Shown one piece after another: positions 3,485 to 54,112 of a stretch of DNA of 64,000 bases. The notes below the pieces were generated by a model. It ran no database searches, was not told where the DNA came from, and saw only the letters and a list, made by a program, of their open reading frames with translations. The stretch is from NCBI GenBank assembly GCA_016219715.1, contig JACRKX010000024.1, positions 141 through 64,140 on the forward strand. Reading direction: 5' to 3'. This DNA comes from Actinomycetota bacterium (GTDB lineage: Bacteria > Actinomycetota > Thermoleophilia > Solirubrobacterales > JACPNS01). The position numbers and the translations under genes were made by a program. Within the stretch, counting starts at the first letter, position 1. The number at the start of each line of letters is the position of its first letter.

Positions 3485-4371
3485 CCGAGTTGGACCAGGC
3501 GATTTTTCCCGACACCAAGCGCTCGGCGGTCGATGCCTATCTGGCCGCGATCGACTTCGAAGTTGAGCCGCCGATCGCCGGCGTAGTCGAGGCGATGCGC
3601 TATTCGCTGCTCGCCGGTGGCAAGCGCGTGCGGCCTGTGCTCGCGCTGAGCACGGCCGCGGCACTCGGTCACGACCCCGAGGCGCTGATGCCTTACGCGG
3701 CCGCGCTCGAGCTGGTGCACACCTACAGCCTGATCCACGACGATCTGCCCGCGATGGACGACGACGACCTGCGACGCGGCAAGCCGACGTGCCACGTTGT
3801 CTACGGCGAGAACGTCGCGATCCTCGCCGGCGACGCATTGTTCGCCGAGGCGCTGCGGCTGGTGACCGCGCGGCAGCAGGGCGATCCCGCCGACATTCTC
3901 GCCGCGCTCGACGAGCTGCTGCACGCCACCGGCGCCGCCGGCATGGTCGGCGGCCAGTACATCGACATCGCCGGCGAGGTTCGAACGGCCGAGCAGCTGA
4001 CCCACATGCACCGACTGAAGACCGGCCGACTGATCGGTGCTTCCGTGAAAGGAGCGGCGCTCACGCTCGGTGCACCGCGCGAGACCGTCGACCGCTTGGC
4101 GGAGTTCGCGGCCGAGTTGGGCGTCCTTTTTCAGATCATCGACGATATCCTCGATGTGACCGGATCCGATGCCGACCTCGGCAAGCCGAGTGGCAGTGAC
4201 GAGCGGCACGGAAAGGCCACATATGTAAGCGTCTTCGGTCTCGAGCGCGCCCGTGCGCTTGCCGACGAGAAGCACGATCGCGTGCGCGAACTGCTCGCGT
4301 CGATCGACTTCCGCGGCGACGCCGGCGATCTCAGGTCCGTGAGCGAATACATCTACAGCCGCGATCGCTAG
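3481..4371 (+). CDS. Polyprenyl diphosphate synthase (farnesyl/geranylgeranyl diphosphate synthase type)
   Basis: Both aspartate-rich motifs are present (LIHDDLPAMDDDDLRRGKPT and FQIIDDILD). Located directly upstream of dxs. Confidence 0.9.
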   Translation: MTELDQAIFPDTKRSAVDAYLAAIDFEVEPPIAGVVEAMRYSLLAGGKRVRPVLALSTAAALGHDPEALMPYAAALELVHTYSLIHDDLPAMDDDDLRRGKPTCHVVYGENVAILAGDALFAEALRLVTARQQGDPADILAALDELLHATGAAGMVGGQYIDIAGEVRTAEQLTHMHRLKTGRLIGASVKGAALTLGAPRETVDRLAEFAAELGVLFQIIDDILDVTGSDADLGKPSGSDERHGKATYVSVFGLERARALADEKHDRVRELLASIDFRGDAGDLRSVSEYIYSRDR

Positions 4372-4401
4372 CGCGACCCGCACCGGCGCGAAGACCCCCA
4401 T

Positions 4402-6375
4402 ATGCCAAAGCAAAGCGATCAACCACCGAAGCCGCTGCTTCCCTCGATCAAGCGGCCGCAGGACCTGCACGACCGATCCGACGCCGAGCTGCAACAGATC
4501 GCTCAAGAGGTCCGTGAGCAGTTGATCGACACCGTCGGCGAGATCGGCGGGCACTTCGGGGCGAACCTCGGAGTCTGCGAACTATCGGTGGCGCTGCACT
4601 CACTGCTCGACTCTCCGACCGACAAGATCCTCTGGGACGTCGGTCACCAGGCATACCCGCACAAGATTCTCACCGGGCGAGGCGACCAGCTTTCGACGAT
4701 CCGCCAGTACGGCGGACTTGCGCCCTTCTGCAACATCGACGAGAGCGAGCACGACATCGCTGGCGCCGGTCACGCGTCGACCTCGATCTCGCTGGCCGTC
4801 GGCATCAAGGAGGCGATGCGTCACGGCGAGGGCAAAGACGGCAAGGTCGTGGCGGTAATCGGTGACGGAGCGATGACTGGCGGCGTCGCTTTCGAGGCGA
4901 TTCACCACGCCGGGGGGCTCGGTACGCCGGTGGTCGTGATCCTCAACGACAACGGAATGTCGATCGCGCCTAACGTCGGAGCGCTGTCGCGCTACTTCAA
5001 CCGTGTTCGCCTGAATCCCAAGCTTTACAAGGCGCGCGACAACGCCGAGAAGGGGCTGTCGAAGCTGCCGGCGGGCATCGGAGCGGCGTTTGAGCGCTTC
5101 GGTCCTCAGTTCAAGGAGTCGGTCAAGGCGTTCTGGGCCCCGGGCCTGTTCTGGGAGGAGCTCGATTTTGCCTACACCGGCGTGGTCGACGGCCACGACG
5201 TTTCCGCGCTGCGAACGGCGATTGGCGAGGCGCTGGCCGCCGATCGTCCCGTGGTCGTGCACATCGCCACGGTCAAAGGCAAAGGCTTCGCGCCGGCTGA
5301 AGAGGGCGGGCTCGAAGGCATGGAGGAGTGGCATGCCGTAAAGCCAAAGGGCATCGTCGACCGCAAGCCCGCCAAGGCCGCCGCCAAGAGCAACGGCGCC
5401 GCCGCGGCCAAGCCCGCGCCGCCGCAGTACACAAAGGTTTTCGGAGAGGCGATCGTCGAAGAGGCGAAGCGCGACCCGCGCGTCGTCGGCATCACCGCCG
5501 CGATGAACACGGGCACCGGGCTGTCGATCATGCAGAAGGAGCTGCCGGACCACTACTTCGACGTCGGTATCGCCGAGCAGCACGCGGTGCTCTTCGCCGC
5601 CGGCCTGGCGTTGCAGGGCATGAAGCCCGTTGCCGCCATCTACTCGACCTTCCTGCAGCGCGGCTTCGATCAGATCGTGCACGATGTCTGCCTGCAGAAC
5701 CTCAACGTTGTCTTTGCGATGGATCGCGCCGGCCTGGTCGGCGACGACGGACCGACACATCACGGCGCGTTCGACATCAGTTACCTGCGCCCGCTGCCGA
5801 ACATCGTGCTGATGGCGCCGCGCGACGAGGCGATGCTCGTCAACATGCTGCACACGGCGCTCGTTTACGACGACGGACCCGTGGGTATTCGTTACCCGCG
5901 CGGTAACGCCGTGGGCGTAGCGCTTCCCGGCATCCCCGAGCCGATCGACATCGGCGTCGGCGAAGTGCTTGCCCGCGGCGACGGGTCGGTTGCGCTGCTC
6001 GGTTACGGGAGCGGTGTCGGCGTGGCTCAGGCCGCCGCTGAGCTGCTCGCCGGAGGCGGGGTAGAGGCGACCGTCGCCGACGCCCGCTTCGCGAAGCCGC
6101 TCGACACCGAGCTCGTCAATGAGCTCGCCGCTGGGCATCGCCTGCTGGTGACCATCGAAGAAAACGTGCTGGCTGGCGGCTTCGGTGCGGCAGTCATCGA
6201 ACACCTCGCCGATAGCGGCCTGCCCGTTCAGACGCTTCGCGTCGGACTGCCCGACCGCTACGTCACGCACGGCGCGCCGTCACTGCTTCACGAGGAAATC
6301 GGGTTTACCGGCGAGGCCGTCGCCAAGCGTGTTTCCGAGCGGCTCGCCAGCCTGACTGGCACGACCGCCACTTAG
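4402..6375 (+). CDS. dxs: 1-deoxy-D-xylulose-5-phosphate synthase
   Basis: 657 aa. Contains GGHFGANLGVCELSVALH, GDGAMTGGVAFEA (ThDP motif) and IAEQHAV... blocks typical of DXS. Confidence 0.95.
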   Translation: MPKQSDQPPKPLLPSIKRPQDLHDRSDAELQQIAQEVREQLIDTVGEIGGHFGANLGVCELSVALHSLLDSPTDKILWDVGHQAYPHKILTGRGDQLSTIRQYGGLAPFCNIDESEHDIAGAGHASTSISLAVGIKEAMRHGEGKDGKVVAVIGDGAMTGGVAFEAIHHAGGLGTPVVVILNDNGMSIAPNVGALSRYFNRVRLNPKLYKARDNAEKGLSKLPAGIGAAFERFGPQFKESVKAFWAPGLFWEELDFAYTGVVDGHDVSALRTAIGEALAADRPVVVHIATVKGKGFAPAEEGGLEGMEEWHAVKPKGIVDRKPAKAAAKSNGAAAAKPAPPQYTKVFGEAIVEEAKRDPRVVGITAAMNTGTGLSIMQKELPDHYFDVGIAEQHAVLFAAGLALQGMKPVAAIYSTFLQRGFDQIVHDVCLQNLNVVFAMDRAGLVGDDGPTHHGAFDISYLRPLPNIVLMAPRDEAMLVNMLHTALVYDDGPVGIRYPRGNAVGVALPGIPEPIDIGVGEVLARGDGSVALLGYGSGVGVAQAAAELLAGGGVEATVADARFAKPLDTELVNELAAGHRLLVTIEENVLAGGFGAAVIEHLADSGLPVQTLRVGLPDRYVTHGAPSLLHEEIGFTGEAVAKRVSERLASLTGTTAT

Positions 6376-6678
6376 GTTCCGACGTCCGGCTTACCGGCCG
6401 GTAGTGAGTGTGCGCCAAATCACACACACATCACACAATCGGACCTACATTATTCCCAGATACGGAAGTCGTCTCCAAGGTTTCAACGGATCGACTCCAG
6501 CGTGGTCAACTCTCTCCCCCCATCGAAGTTGACCGCCGAGACATAGCAGTATCCTCCCCAGAGCAAGGCCCGGCCCAACGCCGGGTCTTCCTCGTTCTCG
6601 AGACGTTTTCGCCACCCGCCAGCCCGTGCCGCGCTGCGCGGTCGCACGCACAGCGGTGCCCGGTCCCGCTTTCGGTGT

Positions 6679-6798
6679 GGCTCTTACATTCAACATCCAA
6701 ACGGATGTTGCCGGCTGCCCGAAGGCGTGCCGACGGTCACATCGCGGCACGTGAATCAAGCGCCAATAACATCCAATCGGATGTTGAATGTCAGAGCC
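6679..6798. repeat. Hairpin-terminated inverted-repeat element, copy A (about 120 bp)
   Basis: Left end: GGCTCTTACATTCAACATCCAAACGGATGTTG. Reverse complement of the right end: GGCTCTGACATTCAACATCCGATTGGATGTTATT. Internal hairpin CGTGCCG-N12-CGGCACG at 6726-6751. The same termini recur at 50178-50371. Confidence 0.8.
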
Positions 6799-6862
6799 GC
6801 TCGGGACCGATGCTCGGGACCTACGCTCGGATAGCGTGCCGATCGAGCCTAAGATCGGCGGC

Positions 6863-7666
6863 ATGGCGAAGCAGCGTGTGGATCAACTTCTGGTCGAGCG
6901 TGGCCTGTTCGAGAGCCGCAGCAAGGCCGCGGCGGCCGTACTGGCCGGCGACGTGTTGCTCGAACGTGGAGGCCGGCGGATCGACAAGCCGGGGCAGATG
7001 GTCGATCCGGCCGAGAAGCTGCGTGTCGCCGAGCGCGAGCGCTACGTCTCGCGCGGTGGTATCAAGCTTGAGAATGCCCTGCGGGCGTTTCCGGCGATCG
7101 AGATCGTGGGCCGCCGCGCGCTCGACGCCGGCGCTTCCACCGGTGGCTTCACCGACTGTCTTCTTCAACGCGGGGCCGATCACGTGATCGCTGTCGACGT
7201 TGCCTATGGCGAGCTGCACATGTCCCTGCGCAACGATCCGCGCGTGACCGTCATCGAACGGCGCAACGTACGTGAACTCGCTCCCGACGAACTTGAATAC
7301 CGGCCCGATCTGATCGTCGCCGACCTCTCGTTCATCTCGCTCGACAAGGTCCTTCCGGCGTTGCTGGGTTGCGCGGCCGAGCGCTTTGACATGCTTGCGC
7401 TCGTGAAACCGCAGTTCGAAGTCGGACGGGAGCGGATCGGCAAGGGCGGGGTCGTGCGCGACCGCGCGGCCCGCGTCGATGCGATCGCCGGTGCGGCCCA
7501 GGCCGCTCGCGATGCCGGATTCTCCGTCGTCGGCGCCTGCTCGTCGGGCCTGCCGGGACCGGCCGGCAACCGTGAGGCGTTCCTCTGGCTGGCCGAGGCC
7601 GGTCGCGCCGGTGCGGCAGACGACTTGCACGCGCTTGCCGAGAGCGTCGAGACGGGCGAGGATTAG
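6863..7666 (+). CDS. tlyA: TlyA-family rRNA 2'-O-ribose methyltransferase (S4 domain + FtsJ-like domain)
   Basis: MAKQRVDQLLVERGLFESRSKAAAAVLAGDVLL (S4 domain), then DAGASTGGFTDCLLQRGA (SAM motif). ATG at 6863 is preferred over the ATG at 6788, which lies inside the repeat hairpin. Confidence 0.85.
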   Translation: MAKQRVDQLLVERGLFESRSKAAAAVLAGDVLLERGGRRIDKPGQMVDPAEKLRVAERERYVSRGGIKLENALRAFPAIEIVGRRALDAGASTGGFTDCLLQRGADHVIAVDVAYGELHMSLRNDPRVTVIERRNVRELAPDELEYRPDLIVADLSFISLDKVLPALLGCAAERFDMLALVKPQFEVGRERIGKGGVVRDRAARVDAIAGAAQAARDAGFSVVGACSSGLPGPAGNREAFLWLAEAGRAGAADDLHALAESVETGED

Positions 7667-7668
7667 GC

Positions 7669-8520
7669 ATGCGCGCAGCCGTCATAACGCATCACTTCCC
7701 ACACGAGCAGGCCGTGCCGGCGATCGCCCGCCTGCGCGAACTGGCGGCCGCGCACGACTGTGAGTTGATCTTTGACGAGATCGAGACGGGCGCCGACCAT
7801 CAGCCGGGGCCGGGCACGATCACGCCGGTGGCCGACTTCGGCGAGGCTGAGATCGACGTAGCGATCGTGCTCGGCGGCGACGGCTCGATCCTGCGGTCGC
7901 TGCGCACCTTTGCCGGGACCGGTGTTCCGACCTTCGGGTTCAACTACGGAACGATCGGCTTCCTGGCAACCGTCGAGCCCGAAGAACTCGAGGACGGACT
8001 GCGCCGGGCGTTGACTGGTGACTTCGAAATCCGCCGGTTGCCGGCCCTGCGCGTCCGCTGTGGCGAGATCGACATGCGTGCCGTCAACGACATCACCTTC
8101 GGACGCGCCCACGAGGCGCGCGTTGCCGACATCTCGTATGCACTGGCCGGTCACACCGTTGGACGCGTGCGCTGCGACGGTCTCGTGGCCGCTACGCCGG
8201 CCGGTTCGACCGGCTACAACCTGGCCAACAGCGGGCCGATCCTGGCCTGGGGCGTGGAGGGCTACGTGGTGAGCTTCATCGCTCCGCACACGCTGACCGC
8301 CAGGGCCCTCGTCGCGGCGCCAGACGATCCGCTTACGGTCGCCAACGGCGCTCGCCGCGACGAGCTCGAGATCATGGTCGATGGATTGATCGTGGGGCGC
8401 CTGCCCGTCGGCGAGAGCGCGGAGCTGACATTCGAGGACGACGTCGCCTCGCTTGCCCAGCTACCCGGCAGCAGCTTCTACGCCCGCTTTCGCGAGAAGT
8501 TCGGGAAGCTGGCGTCGTAG
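7669..8520 (+). CDS. nadK: NAD kinase
   Basis: Contains the GGDGSILR and NYGTIGFL motifs. Sits in the tlyA-nadK-recN order known from mycobacteria. Confidence 0.9.
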   Translation: MRAAVITHHFPHEQAVPAIARLRELAAAHDCELIFDEIETGADHQPGPGTITPVADFGEAEIDVAIVLGGDGSILRSLRTFAGTGVPTFGFNYGTIGFLATVEPEELEDGLRRALTGDFEIRRLPALRVRCGEIDMRAVNDITFGRAHEARVADISYALAGHTVGRVRCDGLVAATPAGSTGYNLANSGPILAWGVEGYVVSFIAPHTLTARALVAAPDDPLTVANGARRDELEIMVDGLIVGRLPVGESAELTFEDDVASLAQLPGSSFYARFREKFGKLAS

Positions 8521-8539
8521 TTCGCCGCCCGGCCTGATA

Positions 8540-8553
8540 CGAACATTTGTTCG
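8540..8553. promoter_or_regulatory. LexA operator (Cheo/SOS box) upstream of recN
   Basis: CGAACATTTGTTCG is a perfect match to the Gram-positive/actinobacterial CGAAC-N4-GTTCG consensus. It lies about 27 nt upstream of the recN GTG. recN is a classical SOS gene. Confidence 0.8.
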
Positions 8554-8579
8554 TCCGGACCGTGGTGTTGAATGGCCGC

Positions 8580-10259
8580 GTGCTGACCGAACTCCGCATA
8601 GAAAACCTCTTGCTGATCGAACGCGCCGAACTTTCGTTCGATTCCGGTTTCAACGCGATCACGGGAGAAACCGGCGCCGGCAAGACCGTGCTTGCTCATG
8701 CGATCGACCTGTTGCTCGGCGGTAAGTCGCGCAAGGGAATCGTCAGGCCTGGGGCGGGGGAGGCCTATGTCGAGGGACTGTTTGCCTTACCACCGGGCCT
8801 GATCGACCGTCCCGAGTTCGCCGAGATTCGCGACCGCCTGCCCGATCCCGAGGCCGACGAGATAGCGCTCGCCCGACGTGTCACTCCGGAGGGGCGCACG
8901 CGCGCCTACATCGAAGGCCGTTCGGCCACCGCCGCGGATCTGCGCGAACTCGGAGGCGCTCTGGTGTCGTTCTACGGGCAGCACGAACACCGCAAGCTGA
9001 CGTTGGCCGGCGCTCAGCTGGCCACGCTCGATGGATTCTGCGGAGAAGCGCACCGAGCACGGGTGGGTGAAGCTGGCGAGCTTTACGAAGCGGCCAGTCG
9101 TATTCGTCGGCGTCTCACCGAACTTGAGGCCGTCGACGGCCGTCGCGAGCGTGAACTCGGTTTGATCGAGTTCGAACTTGCCGAGATCGACGAACTCGCC
9201 CCGGAAGCACGTGATTTCACCGCGCTTTGCGCCGAGCGGGATCGATTGCAGGCCGTCGACCTCCTGCGGGCCGCGTGCGACGCCGCGCTGACGGCTCTCG
9301 ACGACGAGGAATCGGGCGGTGCGAGCGGGCTCGTGGCAAGCGCCTCCTCCCAGCTCTCGGTCGTTGAGGGCAGCGACGCGAAGCTAGACGCGCTTGCGAA
9401 GCGCGTTGAGACCTTGTCGATCGAGCTTCAAGATGCGGCCGCCGACCTCCGCCACTATGGCGAAGAACTCGCCTCCGACCCTGAGCGCCTCGCCGTCGTC
9501 AATGAGCGCCTCGACGGTTACGAGCGGCTGATGCGCAAACACGGCGGGACGATCGAATCGGTGATTTCGCACGGCGACCGCTGCCGCGAGGATCGCGATC
9601 GGCTGTCTGGCTCGCGTGAGGAGATTGCAGCCGCGACCGAGCAGCTCATGAGCGTCGAGGTTTCTCAGCGCGAGATCGCCAAAGCGATTTCGAAAGCGCG
9701 CGGTAAGGCCGCTCCGAAACTGGCGACCGCCGTGCGCGAGCGCCTGGCCGAGCTGGCGCTGGCCGATGCTTCGTTCGAGATCGCGATTTCCACAGACCTC
9801 AGCGACCTGCGGCCCACCGGTGGCGACGCGGTCGAGTTCCTGATTGCTCCGAATCCCGGCATTGCGGCCATGCCGCTGCGCGATACCGCTTCGGGCGGCG
9901 AGTTGTCGCGCGTGATGCTTGCGCTGCTTACCGCCTCCGGCGCGAGCGGAGACCAAACGTATGTCTTCGACGAGATCGACGCCGGAATCGGCGGCCACAC
10001 CGCGCGTGCCGTGGGCGAGCAATTGAGCACGCTGGGAGCAGCGCGCCAAGTGATCTGCATCACCCACCTGCCACAGGTGGCCGCCGCCGCGAGCCGCCAT
10101 TTCCAGATCGAGAAATCGACCGATGGCTCCGAGGCGCGCACCGAAGTTCGCCAGCTGAGCGACACCGCCGTAGTCGACGAGCTATGCCGCATGCTTGGAG
10201 CAGCCGAAGACGACGCGGGCGCGCGGCGTCACGCGAAAGAGCTGCTCGCTACGTCCTGA
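8580..10259 (+). CDS. recN: DNA repair protein RecN
   Basis: (M)LTELRIENLLLIERAEL...ITGETGAGKT (Walker A), with C-terminal SGGELSRVMLAL and the Walker B FDEIDAGIGG. GTG at 8580 gives the canonical N-terminus. The ORF is open from TTG at 8547. Confidence 0.9.
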   Translation: MLTELRIENLLLIERAELSFDSGFNAITGETGAGKTVLAHAIDLLLGGKSRKGIVRPGAGEAYVEGLFALPPGLIDRPEFAEIRDRLPDPEADEIALARRVTPEGRTRAYIEGRSATAADLRELGGALVSFYGQHEHRKLTLAGAQLATLDGFCGEAHRARVGEAGELYEAASRIRRRLTELEAVDGRRERELGLIEFELAEIDELAPEARDFTALCAERDRLQAVDLLRAACDAALTALDDEESGGASGLVASASSQLSVVEGSDAKLDALAKRVETLSIELQDAAADLRHYGEELASDPERLAVVNERLDGYERLMRKHGGTIESVISHGDRCREDRDRLSGSREEIAAATEQLMSVEVSQREIAKAISKARGKAAPKLATAVRERLAELALADASFEIAISTDLSDLRPTGGDAVEFLIAPNPGIAAMPLRDTASGGELSRVMLALLTASGASGDQTYVFDEIDAGIGGHTARAVGEQLSTLGAARQVICITHLPQVAAAASRHFQIEKSTDGSEARTEVRQLSDTAVVDELCRMLGAAEDDAGARRHAKELLATS

Positions 10260-10302
10260 GACCCTTAATACGCCCTTCGCGGTGGTGTTCTAATGTCCAG
10301 CA

Positions 10303-11475
10303 ATGGCCCGCACAACCAGCGAAAACCTTGCCGTGGGGCCGGCACACGCGAAGCAGGTCAGCGGCGTCGTGCGCCCCGGCAAACGCACGAAGTTGCTGAC
10401 CAAGTCGCTCGTTCCCGGCGAGATCGCGTTGATCGACCACAAGGACATCGACCGCGTCTCCGGGGAGGAACTCGTGCGCAAAGGTGTCAGCTGCGTGATC
10501 AACGTCGCGCCGTCTTCGACCGGGGAGTATCCGAATACGGGTCCGGGGATCATCGCGCAGGCAGGGGTGCATCTCGTCGATGCCATCGACGAGCCGCTGT
10601 TCGAGCTGCTTGGCGATGGCGACTCGATCACGGTTCGCGGCGGAGAGGTGCTCAAAGACGGCGAAGTCATAGCGCGCGGTGACGTGCAGTCGCCCGACGT
10701 CGTGGCGGCGAAGTACGAACAGGCAAAGCGTCAGGTCGGTCTCGCGCTCGAACGTTTCGCTGAGAACACTCTGCATCACATCCGCCAGGAGAGCGAGCTT
10801 CTGTCGGGCCGTCTCGACTTTCCGGAGCTCGACACCGTCTTCCGCGATCGCCACGTCCTGATCGTCGTACGTGGCGTCGACCACCAGCGGGATCTGCGCG
10901 CCCTTCGCACATACATCCGCGATGAGCGGCCGCTGCTCGTCGGCGTCGACGGTGGCGCCGACGCGCTGATCGACGAAGGCCACTCGCCAGACTTGATCGT
11001 CGGCGACATGGACAGCGCGCACGACGGAGTGCTCGCCTGTGGCGCCGAGTTGATCGTTCACGCCTACACGGACGGCCGCGCTCCCGGACGCGAGCGGCTC
11101 GACCGGCTCGGGCTCGACTACAAAATCGTCGCCGCACCGGGCACCAGCGAGGACATCGCCATGTTGATGGCAGCCGAAGAAGGCGCGTCGCTGATCGTCA
11201 GTGTCGGCGCGCACTTCAACCTCGTCGAGTTTCTCGACAAGAACCGCAAGGGCATGGCCTCCACGTTCCTCACGCGCGTTCGCGTAGGCGAGATCCTGAT
11301 CGACGCCAAGGGCGTCAGCCGGCTCTACAGGCCGCGGCCATCGGCGCGAGCGCTCTACGCGGTGCTGGGCGCCGGCGTCTTTGCCCTCGGTGTCGCGATC
11401 TTCGCTTCGCCCTCGCTCAACAACCTCGTCGACCTAGTCTGGCTCAAGCTGAAGGTGATCGTCGGAATCGGCTAA
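10303..11475 (+). CDS. steA: SteA-like protein (putative cytokinetic ring protein with a thiamine-pyrophosphokinase-like domain and C-terminal TM)
   Basis: Contains IVGDMDS and GTSEDIAM motifs and a C-terminal membrane helix. Occupies the position after recN, like Rv1697 and Corynebacterium SteA. Confidence 0.75.
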   Translation: MARTTSENLAVGPAHAKQVSGVVRPGKRTKLLTKSLVPGEIALIDHKDIDRVSGEELVRKGVSCVINVAPSSTGEYPNTGPGIIAQAGVHLVDAIDEPLFELLGDGDSITVRGGEVLKDGEVIARGDVQSPDVVAAKYEQAKRQVGLALERFAENTLHHIRQESELLSGRLDFPELDTVFRDRHVLIVVRGVDHQRDLRALRTYIRDERPLLVGVDGGADALIDEGHSPDLIVGDMDSAHDGVLACGAELIVHAYTDGRAPGRERLDRLGLDYKIVAAPGTSEDIAMLMAAEEGASLIVSVGAHFNLVEFLDKNRKGMASTFLTRVRVGEILIDAKGVSRLYRPRPSARALYAVLGAGVFALGVAIFASPSLNNLVDLVWLKLKVIVGIG

Positions 11476-17574: not shown

Positions 17575-17645
17575 CGACGCAACTCTGATTGCGATCCGGT
17601 CAGGGATTGAAGGTTTGCGCGCGAGATTCCGAAAACTCAGTAACG

Positions 17646-18632
17646 ATGGCTCAGCCCGCCACTACCTCTCATGCCCGGATTGAGCCTCCGCCTCCGACAG
17701 CAACCCGCCCCGGCGCCGCCGCTCGCTTCGAGGACATGCTGCTCGATTTTCTCTCGTACCTCGAGTTCGAGGCACGCTGCGCCGAGAACACGCTGATCGC
17801 ATATCGCACCGACCTGATGCAGTTCGGTGCGTGGATCGGAACGCACGACATCGACGCGTTGTCGGTGACCCGCGCCGACGTGATCGCCTACCTAGAGGAA
17901 CTTGCCGCAACCGGTGAGATCGCCGGCACGACGCTGCACCGCAAGCTGTCGTCGCTGCGCAGCTTCTATGTGCACCAGCGCCGCGAGGGCGCGATCGAGC
18001 ACGATCCGACGGCCGACGTCAAGGCGCCGGCACAGACGAAGAAGCTCCCCAGCGTGCTCAGCCGCGCCGAGGTGTCGCACCTGATCAACCAGATACAGGG
18101 CCAGGACGCGATCGCTCTGCGCGACCGCGCCTTGCTTGAGCTGATGTACGCCAGCGGTCTGCGCGTCAGCGAGGTCGCCGGACTAGAGGTCAGCGACGTC
18201 GACTTCGACGAAGCGATCGTGCGTACGCGCGGCAAGGGCAGCAAGGAGCGCATCGTGCCGGTCGGCCGCGCCGCGCTGCTGGCGATTCGCATCTACCTGC
18301 GCGCCGGGCGTCGCCAGCTGACCAAGGACAGGCCGCAGCGATTCCTGTTCGTGAACTTTCGCGGTGGCCAGTTGACCAGGCAGGGTCTCTACAAGATCGT
18401 CCGCAAGTACGCCGAGCGCGCTGGTCTGGGCGACCAGATGAGTCCGCACACCCTGCGTCACACCTTTGCCACGCATCTGCTCTCCGGCGGTTGCGACCTG
18501 CGGTCGGTTCAGGAGATGCTGGGCCACGCCGACGTGGCCACGACGCAGACCTACACCCATCTCACCACCGAACGCCTGAAGGACGTGTACTTCACCGCGC
18601 ACCCGCGCGCGGTTCTGCACGAGCTGCGCTAA
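17646..18632 (+). CDS. xerD: Tyrosine recombinase XerD/XerC family
   Basis: Core-binding domain (ENTLIAYRTDL) and catalytic motifs (RVSE...HTLRHTFATHLL...LGHADVATTQTYTH). ATG at 17646 lies inside the longer ORF. Confidence 0.8.
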   Translation: MAQPATTSHARIEPPPPTATRPGAAARFEDMLLDFLSYLEFEARCAENTLIAYRTDLMQFGAWIGTHDIDALSVTRADVIAYLEELAATGEIAGTTLHRKLSSLRSFYVHQRREGAIEHDPTADVKAPAQTKKLPSVLSRAEVSHLINQIQGQDAIALRDRALLELMYASGLRVSEVAGLEVSDVDFDEAIVRTRGKGSKERIVPVGRAALLAIRIYLRAGRRQLTKDRPQRFLFVNFRGGQLTRQGLYKIVRKYAERAGLGDQMSPHTLRHTFATHLLSGGCDLRSVQEMLGHADVATTQTYTHLTTERLKDVYFTAHPRAVLHELR

Positions 18633-48668: not shown

Positions 48669-49768
48669 GAGACCCACGCGTAGACGCGCTCGCCAACATT
48701 CTGGTCAACTACTCGACCGGCGTGAAGCCGGGGGAGACCTGTGTGATCCAGAGCGAGGTGGCCGCCGAACCGCTCGTGCAGGCCGTTTACGAAGAGGTGC
48801 TCAAGGCCGGCGGCCTGCCGATCGTGCAGCTGGCGCTGAGCGAGGGCGCTCCGGCGTTTTACAAGTACGCCAACGACGAGCAGCTCACGTGGATCCCGCC
48901 AACCGCGCAGTGGATCGCCGAGAACATCGACACCCGCATCGCGATCATGGCCGACACGAACACGCGCGCGCTCAGCAACGTCGATCCCGAGAAGCAGACG
49001 AAGGTCAGCACGGCGCGCAAGCCGCTGATGGACGCGTCCATGAAGCGCTCCGCCGCCGGCGACTACCGCTGGTCGCTAACGCTGTTCCCGACCAACGCAT
49101 ACGCCTCAGAGGCCGGGCTGTCGCTCTCGGAATACGAGGACTTCTTCTACAACGCCTGTCTCGCCGGCGACCCCGATCCGCTTACGGCCTGGCAGCGCCA
49201 GAGCGACATGGTCAAGAAGCTGGCGGCGTGGATGGAGGGCAAGAAAGAAGTCCACATCAAGGCTCCCGGAACCGACATAACGCTCGGCGTCGAGGGCCGC
49301 ACCTGGATTCCGTGTGTCGGCACGCACAACATGCCCGATGGTGAGTTCTTCACCGGCCCAGTCGAAGACAGCGTCAACGGCGTCGTCGAGTTCAGTTTCC
49401 CGGCCACCTACGGCGGCCGCGAGGTCAGCGGCGTGCGCTTCGAGTTCAAAGACGGCAAGATCGTCGACGCCTCGGCCCAGCAGGGTGAGGATTTCCTGTT
49501 GAAGATGCTCGACACCGACGACGGCTCGCGCCGGCTCGGAGAGCTGGGAATCGGCACCAACTACGGCATTACGACCGGTACCAAGGAGATCCTGCTCGAC
49601 GAGAAGATCGGCGGCACCGTTCACATGGCGATCGGCATGAGCTACCCCGAGAGCGGTGGCACGAACGACTCCGCGATTCACTGGGACATGGTCTGCGACC
49701 TGCGCCAAGGCGGTTCGATCACGGTCGACGGCACCGAGTTGCAGCGCGACGGCAAGTTTCTCGTCTAA
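48665..49768 (+). CDS. M29-family aminopeptidase (AmpS/PepS type)
   Basis: LANILVNYSTGVKPGE... and C-terminal GTNDSAIHWDMV are typical of thermophilic-metalloprotease M29 aminopeptidases. ATGA overlap with pdxT. Confidence 0.8.
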   Translation: MRDPRVDALANILVNYSTGVKPGETCVIQSEVAAEPLVQAVYEEVLKAGGLPIVQLALSEGAPAFYKYANDEQLTWIPPTAQWIAENIDTRIAIMADTNTRALSNVDPEKQTKVSTARKPLMDASMKRSAAGDYRWSLTLFPTNAYASEAGLSLSEYEDFFYNACLAGDPDPLTAWQRQSDMVKKLAAWMEGKKEVHIKAPGTDITLGVEGRTWIPCVGTHNMPDGEFFTGPVEDSVNGVVEFSFPATYGGREVSGVRFEFKDGKIVDASAQQGEDFLLKMLDTDDGSRRLGELGIGTNYGITTGTKEILLDEKIGGTVHMAIGMSYPESGGTNDSAIHWDMVCDLRQGGSITVDGTELQRDGKFLV

Positions 49769-50187
49769 TCGACGACTTCGCTGCGAGCGCGAAGCGCGGC
49801 TCGCCGTTTGCGCAGCATCGCAAGCCCCTGCAAGCGGCGCTCGCCGCCGTGCCGGCCATCGATACCGAGCAGTTCTAGGGTGGCCGGCGCCGGGCTCGGC
49901 GTGGAGCGAAGTTTGGCGGGCTGACGAAGGCTGGCGTCAAGCTCTTGGCGAAGCGCGAGCACTGCGATCAGATCCCACCCGCACGCCCCGACGGCGCGCA
50001 GCACGTTGGCGAAGCTGGGCTCGCGCCGGCCGCTCTCCCAGCGCGCAACGGTCTGTTGCGGAACCCCAAGCCGCCGCGATAGTTCGGCTTGAGAGATGAC
50101 CGATCGCTCCCGTGCGACCCGCACCAGTCTTCCGCCGCCGCCCTCGGCGGTGATGTGGGTTGGACCGATTCCGAGCACCTCGGGCAT
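49765..50187 (-). CDS. XRE-family helix-turn-helix transcriptional regulator
   Basis: ISQAELSRRLGVPQQTVARWESGRREPSFANVLRAVGACGWDL is an XRE HTH. The ATG at 50187 lies inside the repeat terminus and has a poor RBS. An internal GTG at 50124, preceded by GGAAGA, is a plausible true start. Confidence 0.75.
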   Translation of the reverse strand: MPEVLGIGPTHITAEGGGGRLVRVARERSVISQAELSRRLGVPQQTVARWESGRREPSFANVLRAVGACGWDLIAVLALRQELDASLRQPAKLRSTPSPAPATLELLGIDGRHGGERRLQGLAMLRKRRAALRARSEVVD

Positions 50188-50371
50188 TCAACATCCATTT
50201 GGATGTCAGGAGTGAGACGAGTCGCGCCAATTCCGCGACGAGATCGCAACGATCTGCACAGTCACGGTGCCGGGGGCGGGCCAGGGGATCGTCGTGGAGG
50301 CAAGATGCTCGCCGCTCGGCACCATGCCGCTGAGCAAATTCAACATCCAATCGGATGTTGAATGTCAGAGC
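50178..50371. repeat. Hairpin-terminated inverted-repeat element, copy B (about 190 bp)
   Basis: Left end: CCTCGGGCATTCAACATCCATTTGGATGTCAGG. Right end: ATTCAACATCCAATCGGATGTTGAATGTCAGAGC, with a perfect 11-bp stem. The right end is identical over 27 nt to the right end of copy A (AACATCCAATCGGATGTTGAATGTCAGAGC). Confidence 0.8.
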
Positions 50372-50546
50372 ACTGGCGCAATGCCTCGCGCCCTGCGGTC
50401 AACACGACGCGCGCCGAGCGGCGGACGAAAAAAGAAAGTTCGTTCGATTGCATGAAACGATGTATTATTCGCGGCCGTAGCTGGCGCCGTATGCAATAGC
50501 GTCCGCTTCCCCCGTAGATCGTCCCCCAGCCAAGGAGCAGCTGCGC

Positions 50547-51383
50547 ATGTCCGGTTTCGAAGTGTTCAACAACAAAGTCGCCGTCATCACCGGTGCCGCG
50601 TCTGGGCTCGGTCAGGGATTCGCGACCGTGACGGCAGCCAATGGCGCCACGGTCGTTGCTGCCGACATCAATCTCGAAGGCGCGGAGAAGACCGCCGAGC
50701 GCATCACTGCCGCCGGTGGCAAGGCCACGGCGAAGCAGGTCGACGTTCGCGATGCCGCCGCCGTCGCGAAGCTCGTCGATGACGCCGTAGCCGAGCACGG
50801 GCGAATCGACTACATGTTCAACAACGCCGGAATCGCGGTGCAGGGGCCGATGCAGGAGATCCCGATCGAGCACTGGGACGAGATCATCGACATCAACCTA
50901 AAGGGTGTCGTGCATGGCACGTCGGCCGCGTACAAGCACATGTACAAGCAGAAGAGCGGTCACATCGTCAACACTGCCAGCCTCGCTGGCCTGGTCCCGT
51001 CTCCGCTCCTGTCGCCCTACAGCGCGACGAAGTTCGGCGTGGTCGGCTTGTCTGACTCGCTGCGCGTCGAGGCGCAGGGGACGGGCGTGAAGGTCACGGC
51101 GCTGTGTCCGGGATTCATCGAGTCCGGCATTTACGACTCCGCGCGTTACAGCGGCGGACTCAACGCCGAGATCGGGCGTAAGCAGATTCCTCTGATCGTG
51201 CCGCTCGAGGAGGGCGTCGACAAGCTGCTCAAAGGCGTCGTCAAGGAAAAGCGCGTCGTCACGCTGCCGCTGTATGGCTACCTGTTCTGGTACGGCTATC
51301 GCGCCACGCCCGTCGCGGGCATCAAGCTCAGTGGCTTTCTGGCCCGTCGCCAGATGAAGGCGATCAAGAAGGCCGCTAGATAG
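50547..51383 (+). CDS. Short-chain dehydrogenase/reductase
   Basis: VAVITGAASGLGQG, NNAG and YSATKFGVVG motifs. Strong RBS AAGGAG. Confidence 0.85.
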   Translation: MSGFEVFNNKVAVITGAASGLGQGFATVTAANGATVVAADINLEGAEKTAERITAAGGKATAKQVDVRDAAAVAKLVDDAVAEHGRIDYMFNNAGIAVQGPMQEIPIEHWDEIIDINLKGVVHGTSAAYKHMYKQKSGHIVNTASLAGLVPSPLLSPYSATKFGVVGLSDSLRVEAQGTGVKVTALCPGFIESGIYDSARYSGGLNAEIGRKQIPLIVPLEEGVDKLLKGVVKEKRVVTLPLYGYLFWYGYRATPVAGIKLSGFLARRQMKAIKKAAR

Positions 51384-54098: not shown

Positions 54099-54112
54099 GG
54101 AACATGCGTTCG
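54099..54112. promoter_or_regulatory. LexA operator (Cheo/SOS box) overlapping the ruvC start
   Basis: GGAACATGCGTTCG contains GAAC-N4-GTTC. The ruvC ATG (54104) lies inside the spacer. ruvCAB is SOS-regulated in mycobacteria. Confidence 0.7.

Follow-up and report, generated by a model that had tools for sequence, protein, structure and literature searches.

What kind of sequence is a 120-bp segment bounded by inverted termini, lying between dxs (4402-6375) and the tlyA-nadK-recN-steA genes (6863-11475) of a Thermoleophilia genome? The window (the whole 64-kb stretch of DNA that was analyzed) had previously been read from its letters and open reading frames (ORFs). That sequence-only reading described the segment as a small element with hairpin-containing ends that recur elsewhere in the window, and it proposed a MITE-like element, a family of protein-binding palindromes, or a structured RNA, with a loose resemblance to integron attC sites. 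The stakes are modest: the organism is an uncultured Thermoleophilia MAG, known here only by its sequence. The features of the window on which the argument turns are these.

6679-6710, plus strand: unit A-left; extension GGCTCTTAC, arm ATTCAACATCC, centre AAAC, arm GGATGTTG
6711-6766, no strand assigned: pair A spacer, unlike the pair B spacer; holds the hairpin CGTGCCG-N12-CGGCACG (6726-6751)
6767-6798, minus strand: unit A-right; GGCTCTGAC ATTCAACATCC GATT GGATGTTA (minus-strand reading)
6863-10259, plus strand: tlyA-nadK-recN, presumed newly recruited target downstream of pair A
49765-50187, minus strand: XRE-family HTH_3 regulator of 140 aa (P0001), clade-specific and fast-evolving, the presumed binding protein
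50178-50208, plus strand: unit B-left, proximal to the XRE gene; CCTCGGGC ATTCAACATCC ATTT GGATGTCA
50338-50371, minus strand: unit B-right, distal; perfect palindrome ATTCAACATCC-AATC-GGATGTTGAAT plus extension GTCAGAGC

Paired inverted units at two loci

The sequences and coordinates given earlier for the 120-bp segment and its inverted termini are correct, and the inner hairpin reported at 6726-6751 is present. What recurs is a unit of ~32 nt, GCTCTGAC·ATTCAACATCC-N4-GGATGTTG, which occurs exactly four times in the 64 kb as two outward-facing inverted pairs, pair A (6679-6798) and pair B (50178-50371). The claim of a small element therefore holds for the repeat, which is real, but not for the whole 120 bp, which never recurs intact. 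Each terminus had been described as an ACATCC-N4-GGATGT hairpin, and this core is perfect at 4/4 sites in the window. The 12-mer CATTCAACATCC matches exactly at 6687-6698 (plus), 6779-6790 (minus), 50185-50196 (plus), and 50353-50364 (minus); at 50337-50348 there is a fifth match, with one position mismatched, which supplies the remaining arm of a perfect 11+4+11 palindrome (50338-50363). Five matches were thus observed against 0.13 expected, a count reached in none of 100 shuffles of the 64-kb window, in agreement with the earlier claim that four copies of the 12-mer exceed chance. The 18-nt extension plus arm (CTCTGACATTCAACATCC), allowing up to three mismatches, gave four matches against 0.03 expected, at the same four places. 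A repeat search returned the inverted arms of pair A as 6679-6709/6768-6798 (31 nt, 87% complementary) and those of pair B as 50179-50206/50343-50370 (28 nt, 86% complementary). The finding is real and non-random, and it is functional-looking.

Alignment of nine units from the window and its relatives in one orientation gave the consensus (G)GCTCTGAC-ATTCAACATCC-(A/T-rich N4)-GGATGT(T/C)(G/A). The aligned unit is short and imperfectly palindromic, with conserved sequence on its flanks and a 6-4-6 geometry, and its centre is A/T-rich in all nine cases despite the GC-rich genome. Conservation across the nine is lopsided, extending over 18 nt on one side and 6 to 8 nt on the other. The ACATCC-N4-GGATGT motif itself is new. 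The outermost units of each locus are opposed, their extensions pointing outward, and this arrangement gives them their resemblance to terminal inverted repeats. The earlier observation that the termini of pair A recur at 50178-50371 around an unrelated interior was confirmed: neither the interiors nor the outer flanks of pairs A and B, nor those of the pairs in relatives, were more similar than expected by chance (local alignment against shuffles, all p > 0.05). Because the interior is not shared, A and B are not copies of one element. Searches with patterns and with a weight matrix built from the nine units found no further unit in the 64-kb window, and no units were found elsewhere in ~76 kb of relatives' DNA (L001, L067-L071).

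Measured from start to start, the palindromes are 76 bp apart in pair A and 152 bp apart in pair B, exactly twice 76. The corresponding values in relatives are 40 and 78 bp (L001) and 99 bp (L009). A spacing of ~76 to 78 bp and its double thus recur, and none of the values corresponds to a whole number of helical turns. The extension conserved on one side, (G)CTCTGAC, holds CTGACA, a 5/6 match to the -35 hexamer; it may provide a further contact or form part of a promoter. Next to the units no convincing sigma-70-type promoter was detected and no matching -10 was found; by eye, a leaderless XRE mRNA would be without a -10 hexamer. The extension was also considered as a Tn3-family terminal repeat (GGGGTCTGAC...) and rejected in that role; only TCTGAC, which we take to be Tn3-family terminal-repeat sequence, is shared, and there is no 5-bp duplication.

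Termini of this kind could function as RNA. The units would then be cis-acting structures in the tlyA and XRE leaders, either one hairpin per unit or a long rod. The 120 nt of pair A do fold as a single rod (-65.8 kcal/mol for the plus strand and -74.7 for the minus strand, z about -9.4), a stability that the inverted repeats build in, and the hairpin of the unit proximal to the XRE gene would sequester both the GGA and the ATG of its mRNA. Variation in the units does not follow this pairing, however. Five of the six inner pairs never vary, and one innermost pair is broken without compensation (unit L009-1); in the outer stem pairs breaks predominate over compensation, and all covariation measures equal those obtained with shuffled partners. 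The lack of covariation in the stems suggests that sequence, not pairing, is conserved. Structures in the interior are not conserved either: self-complementarity is borderline in the spacers of pairs A and B (z -1.8, p about 0.05; for 6714-6763 in pair A, z -1.77, p 0.05), and those of L001 and L009 show no excess. Rfam returned nothing at gathering score or at E<=5, save one match at chance level. With an invariant core and a decaying 3' arm, the units are very unlikely to be conserved as structured RNA.

Two forms of site-specific recombination were also weighed. Inverted repeats of 28 to 31 nt that flank short segments directly upstream of genes are what an invertible promoter switch would look like, with a recombinase flipping the segment between them. 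Against such a switch, the orientation is the same in the window and two independent assemblies of its strain, and likewise in four assemblies of the L001 strain. Each inverted repeat is itself a palindrome, L001 has three units of which two are direct, and the only recombinase in the window is XerD, so that we regard inversion as highly improbable. This tyrosine recombinase (17589-18632) passes the XerD equivalog model (339.6 > 329.6) and fails the integron-integrase model (152.9 versus 265 required), a result that also bears on the proposed likeness to attC recombination sites. That likeness is supported solely by ATTCAAC...GTTGAAT, which fits the RYYYAAC/GTTRRRY cores loosely. The window contains neither an integron integrase nor a cassette array, the surrounding genes are housekeeping genes, and the termini are self-palindromic and about 90 to 100% identical between copies, unlike attC sites. 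We reject the attC idea, the chance of which we put at next to nothing.

The XRE gene beside pair B

Pair B lies directly upstream of the XRE gene, between this ORF and an SDR gene (50547-51383), at a distance of 43 kb from pair A. The XRE protein matches PF01381 HTH_3 (E 2.8e-11; 43.7 bits, cut-off 23) and PF13560 (HTH_31), has only a handful of relatives in databases, and passes none of the curated family models. Its predicted structure has a mean pLDDT of 63.6 and contains a confident five-helix HTH (pLDDT 86-94 over approximately residues 20 to 70), followed outside the HTH by a disordered linker, a basic C-terminal helix, and low-confidence tails. The model shows no recognizable oligomerization domain and no informative C-terminal domain. 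The nearest solved folds are those of the XRE repressors ClgR, Stl, restriction-modification (R-M) controller proteins, DdrO, SinR, and P22 C2. The XRE start codon (ATG, 50187-50185, minus strand) is located inside the outer arm of B-left, and the GGA in the other arm of this unit is at Shine-Dalgarno distance from it.

The same arrangement is found in relatives. The contigs of XRE orthologues with 78% and 70% identity keep the synteny, with pdxS-pdxT-M29 peptidase-XRE on one side of the unit-bearing region and SDR-yebC-ruvCAB on the other, and they carry units at this position. Further copies in related genomes, which the sequence-only reading had made a test of its claim, are thus found at the XRE locus, though not in the dxs-tlyA spacer. 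The relevant positions are as follows.

L001, 9859-9884, 9899-9924, and 9977-10002: three units upstream of the XRE gene
L009, 631-656 and 730-755: two units upstream of the XRE gene
Window 50160-50187 (minus strand), L001 10001-10030, and L009 754-783: near-frozen 5' codons of the XRE gene
L084 8176-8267, L085 11107-11199, and L086 11107: M29-SDR junctions where the XRE module is absent, compared with window 49765-50420

In L001 and L009, too, the XRE start codon is inside the proximal arm, GGATGTTGAATGtcagag. Two of the three units in L001 are in direct orientation; across the window and its relatives, units thus occur singly, in tandem, and inverted. In a three-way alignment of the window, L001, and L009, the conserved blocks are the units, one block near the SDR gene, and another, short one upstream of XRE; between the units the sequence is unalignable, and their number and spacing vary. 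Between the window and L001, identity at four-fold degenerate sites is 0.67 for the M29 gene, 0.51 for the SDR gene, and 0.41 for the XRE gene, values close to saturation for this GC3. Orthologous units of the same two genomes match at 19/19 positions over the extension plus 5' arm and keep GGATGT intact, differing only in their N4 centre and outer 3' arm. Retention of the units under near-saturated four-fold divergence shows purifying selection on their sequence at the XRE locus. As a separate observation, synonymous sites in the first ~8 XRE codons (GAG GTG CTC GGA ATC GGT) are almost frozen between genomes, against a four-fold identity of 0.41 in the rest of the gene, so that the constrained DNA reaches ~20 nt past the unit into the coding sequence.

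Matches of TlyA and M29 assign the lineage to Thermoleophilia/Solirubrobacterales. The XRE gene is restricted to one clade. It is missing from contigs whose M29 is 91%, 88%, and 82% identical, in which SDR comes immediately after M29. By M29 identity, the genomes that bear XRE group as a clade (98.6% between the window and L001, 95.4% between the window and L006). Within it the XRE protein is only 78% (L001) and 56% (L006) identical, far below the neighboring M29. Relative to the outgroups, the XRE module is an indel whose ends are not definable. The 3' tail of the XRE ORF overlaps the M29 stop codon by 4 nt and, by eye, runs through the region that corresponds to the M29-SDR spacer of L084. 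Elsewhere in this neighborhood, L001 has a DNA photolyase gene (4388-5758) between ruvB and PAS/secDF, which is not so placed in the window, L085, or L086.

The divergent allele of L006 (P0004, 56% identity) has a different repeat. The recognition helix, GVPQQTVARWE, is identical in all three proteins whose loci share the ACATCC motif, and in P0004 it reads GTSRQVVNRWE. No ACATCC palindrome is present at the L006 XRE locus. There are instead four copies of a different unit with the core TTGACAAATGTCCGATACG, three in tandem at 61 to 62 bp and one inverted (3528-3868). The outermost arms (33 nt, 94% complementary) have the same outward-facing layout as the ACATCC family; these units form no hairpins and are found only upstream of the P0004 XRE gene. 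Each contains a perfect -35-like TTGACA, and with the 5/6 match CTGACA in the ACATCC extension this suggests that a unit may act as promoter and operator at once. Repressor-operator co-evolution would predict such a pattern, in which either allele has a repeat family to itself and the layout stays the same; with only two alleles compared, the support for it is limited.

Of the readings proposed at the outset, a family of protein-binding palindromes is the one best supported by these sequence comparisons, in view of the tie between the units and the adjacent XRE gene and of purifying selection at that locus. The protein bound could nevertheless be a different one, such as a nucleoid-associated, recombination, or segregation protein, which would fit the same sequence-level conservation of the units. 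Such a protein would not account for the XRE gene being co-located in every motif-bearing genome, for the overlap of a unit with its start codon, or for the repeat family changing along with the XRE recognition helix. We give another binding protein a slim chance. The association with the XRE gene comprises few independent observations, since one ancestral locus was inherited by three genomes and one divergent allele is added to these.

On balance, then, we lean toward the units being putative autoregulatory operators of the XRE protein, a second pair of which was copied before tlyA-nadK(-recN). We infer binding, repression, looping, and a regulatory effect on tlyA as follows. An XRE dimer would read the 6-bp half-sites ACATCC and GGATGT, which are separated centre to centre by 10 bp, with 4 A/T-rich bp in the middle. 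Since the proximal unit spans the start codon and ribosome-binding region of the XRE gene, its occupancy would turn off the protein's own expression (negative autoregulation). The distal unit or units, 40 to 152 bp upstream and facing the opposite way, could then serve cooperative binding or looping. Pair A would represent two units of the distal type copied into the hypervariable dxs-tlyA spacer in this lineage only, placing tlyA-nadK, with read-through into recN, under the same XRE regulator; recN would keep its own LexA-controlled start. The upstream position of the units in XRE orthologues and the constant location of the XRE ATG inside the proximal arm favor operators. Other points speak against them: the asymmetry of 18 nt versus 6 to 8 nt is not explained by a simple symmetric dimer, the search beside the units gave no convincing sigma-70-type promoter, and the spacings of 40, 76, 78, 99, and 152 bp are not helically phased.

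Autoregulated Cro/CI (XRE) repressors such as 434, P22 C2, SinR, ClgR, and the C-proteins are the closest parallel to such an arrangement. The protein is the same kind of small HTH_3 protein, with fold and sequence matches to members of this group. Its putative sites each pair two inverted half-sites at a distance of one helical turn around an A/T-rich centre, two or three of them lie upstream of its own gene with the proximal one over the translation start, and the sites change with the recognition helix. Features not shared with those systems are a conserved 8-nt extension on one side of each unit, outer units opposed in the manner of terminal inverted repeats, and the copying of a second pair to an unrelated locus. 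The XRE protein also differs in having a disordered linker and a basic C-terminal helix with no recognizable oligomerization domain.

Gain of pair A upstream of tlyA

Pair A is a gain specific to this lineage, since none of five orthologous dxs-tlyA spacers (L067-L071) contains units. The TlyA proteins of these contigs are 91% (L067 and L068, which are one sequence assembled twice), 86%, 82%, and 80% identical to that of the window; L068 comes from the same sample as L001. In an alignment of the spacers, the 5' half is highly conserved and the 3' half varies in length and sequence. Compared with L068, the window has ~160 extra nt in an unalignable hypervariable stretch, more than the 120 nt of the proposed element, so that pair A has no clean boundaries. 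A-right, which ends 64 nt before the tlyA ATG, is identical to B-right at 30/30 positions including the unconstrained N4 centre, in which the orthologous distal units of L001 and L009 differ from B-right. The AAAC centre of A-left is as in the L001 distal units. Identity at 30/30 positions without homology in the flanks indicates that pair A is recent and consists of distal-type units copied without their surroundings. Two near-perfect 32-nt units at tlyA are beyond the reach of point mutation, and a copying mechanism is required. Descent of pair A from the XRE 5' region as a segmental duplicate was rejected, because Smith-Waterman scores against shuffles were non-significant for all flanks and interiors.

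Copying of this kind raises the main rival to the operator reading, namely, that the units are a REP/REPIN-like (or MITE-like) non-autonomous mobile doublet served by a transposase in trans, the XRE link being incidental or secondary. A REPIN consists of two inverted REPs, each a palindrome with flanks, around a hairpin-forming spacer variable in length and sequence, with a total of ~90 to 120 bp (PMC3337134). The anatomy of pair A closely fits that description (PMC3337134), since palindromes with a conserved flank form inverted doublets whose variable spacer can fold into one hairpin (Bertels & Rainey, PMC3337134). Pair A folds as one rod with its interior included, and the self-complementarity of the spacers is borderline in A and B (p about 0.05). 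Both pairs (120 and 194 bp) are extragenic, and presence differs between close relatives, the dxs-tlyA spacers of relatives being empty in 5/5 cases, one of them at 91% TlyA identity. The 30/30 identity of A-right and B-right speaks for recent copying without flanking homology, and units occur singly, in tandem, and inverted.

Several observations weigh against a mobile doublet. Neither pair has a target-site duplication (pair A is flanked by ...CGGTGT|GGCTCT and AGAGCC|GCTCGG, giving GGTGT and GCTCG as the adjoining pentamers), and the ~160 extra nt at tlyA fall in a hypervariable stretch without clean boundaries. The ~45 other ORFs of the window are housekeeping genes, with no transposase or RAYT among them. 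The spacers of L001 and L009 are not hairpins. Pattern scans of collections in which this lineage is absent gave no genuine unit matches: 57 single matches in the genome collection, from unrelated phyla, at about the chance level and none with the extension, and 2 in the metagenome and 8 in the viral collection, all chance-like. Three further properties are unexpected for selfish repeats, namely, conservation at one orthologous locus under near-saturated neutral divergence, overlap with a start codon, and replacement by a non-palindromic family beside the divergent XRE allele. Unlike REPINs, the units have a link to a regulator gene, and purifying selection keeps them in a 5' regulatory position that is orthologous between genomes. 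REP families comprise tens to hundreds of dispersed extragenic copies and a cognate RAYT gene, usually flanked by REPs; the 64 kb has four units at two loci, with none in other intergenic regions, and a single-copy RAYT gene could lie elsewhere in the genome. Descriptions of REPIN-RAYT systems come mainly from Gammaproteobacteria. We judge a mobile doublet whose link to the XRE gene is incidental or secondary to be possible but unlikely.

As for MITEs, the likeness comprises terminal inverted repeats of ~30 nt, small size, the absence of coding sequence, and an empty site in relatives; unlike MITEs, the pairs have no target-site duplication, no clean boundaries, no cognate IS in the window, and no shared interior. 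The MITE-like reading proposed at the outset thus retains its empty tlyA sites and REPIN-like anatomy and loses its support where a duplication, defined boundaries, and an autonomous partner in the window are concerned. Such inverted pairs should not be called MITEs from sequence alone.

The two main readings can also be combined. The units might be both XRE operators and REPIN-like mobilizable doublets, with a regulon that grows by transposition-like copying of operators. Identity at 30/30 positions without flanking homology, outward-facing doublets, and empty sites are compatible with this combination, to which we assign a low probability. If true, it would represent the first REPIN-type system described in Thermoleophilia (Actinomycetota).

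Since recN is downstream of pair A and ruvCAB is near the XRE gene, DNA damage regulators were considered as well. The resemblance to the DdrO/IrrE (RDRM) and LexA SOS systems comprises an XRE-type protein, sites before the recN operon, and a gene near ruvCAB. The units do not match the LexA box CGAAC-N4-GTTCG, and canonical boxes are located at recN and ruvC.

8540-8553: perfect LexA (Cheo-type) box CGAACATTTGTTCG, exactly at the recN start
8627-8640: perfect LexA (Cheo-type) box CGAACTTTCGTTCG, 80 nt further into recN
54099-54112: near-perfect LexA (Cheo-type) box GGAACATGCGTTCG, just before ruvC

We therefore rejected the units as LexA boxes. The second recN box suggests that annotation may have placed the TTG start of this gene too far upstream. 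A DdrO-like regulon was also rejected. The sequence similarity to DdrO is non-significant and the fold match is that of a generic HTH, no COG2856-type protease is adjacent, the tlyA pair is absent in relatives, and recN and ruvC have ordinary LexA boxes.

If the units are operators of the XRE protein, as we favor, they would provide a clean natural example of regulatory rewiring by a young, clade-specific, fast-evolving XRE regulator. The operators would have stayed constant amid drift, and two of them would have been copied, in one lineage, before an operon encoding an rRNA methyltransferase, an NAD kinase, and recN. The second pair before tlyA would then illustrate, on a modest scale, how sites of a regulator come to be copied to a new gene. 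P0001 with its ACATCC-N4-GGATGT units and P0004 with its TTGACAAATGTCCGATACG units would offer a specificity pair for the study of repressor-operator co-evolution.

Other features of the dxs-tlyA spacer were recorded alongside pair A. The flank of A-right looks like the first XRE codons, yet this similarity is non-significant against shuffles. The reading frame of tlyA also takes in an ATG within A-right (6788; GAATGTCAGAG), which precedes the conserved start at 6863 by 25 codons and mirrors the XRE start (ATG TCA GAG in L001 and L009). It may be a coincidence, the chance of an open in-frame stretch being ~0.15. The TlyA homologues P0012 and P0017 have annotated N-terminal extensions, though their spacers contain no unit. 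Directly after A-right is a 13-nt tandem repeat (GCTCGGGACCGAT / GCTCGGGACCTAC / GCTCGGATAGCG, 6799-6830) that is absent from the spacers of relatives.

Between dxs and pair A, a 195-nt non-coding element (6407-6601, plus strand) is conserved in 5/5 Thermoleophilia spacers. A search of Rfam with 6407-6601 returned no match even at E<=5. RNAalifold predicts a long-range helix and an internal stem, in which six compensatory pairs close a C-rich loop (CUCCCCCC); a second CCUCCCC stretch and then a terminator hairpin follow. This element is a candidate sRNA or leader with anti-Shine-Dalgarno-like loops.
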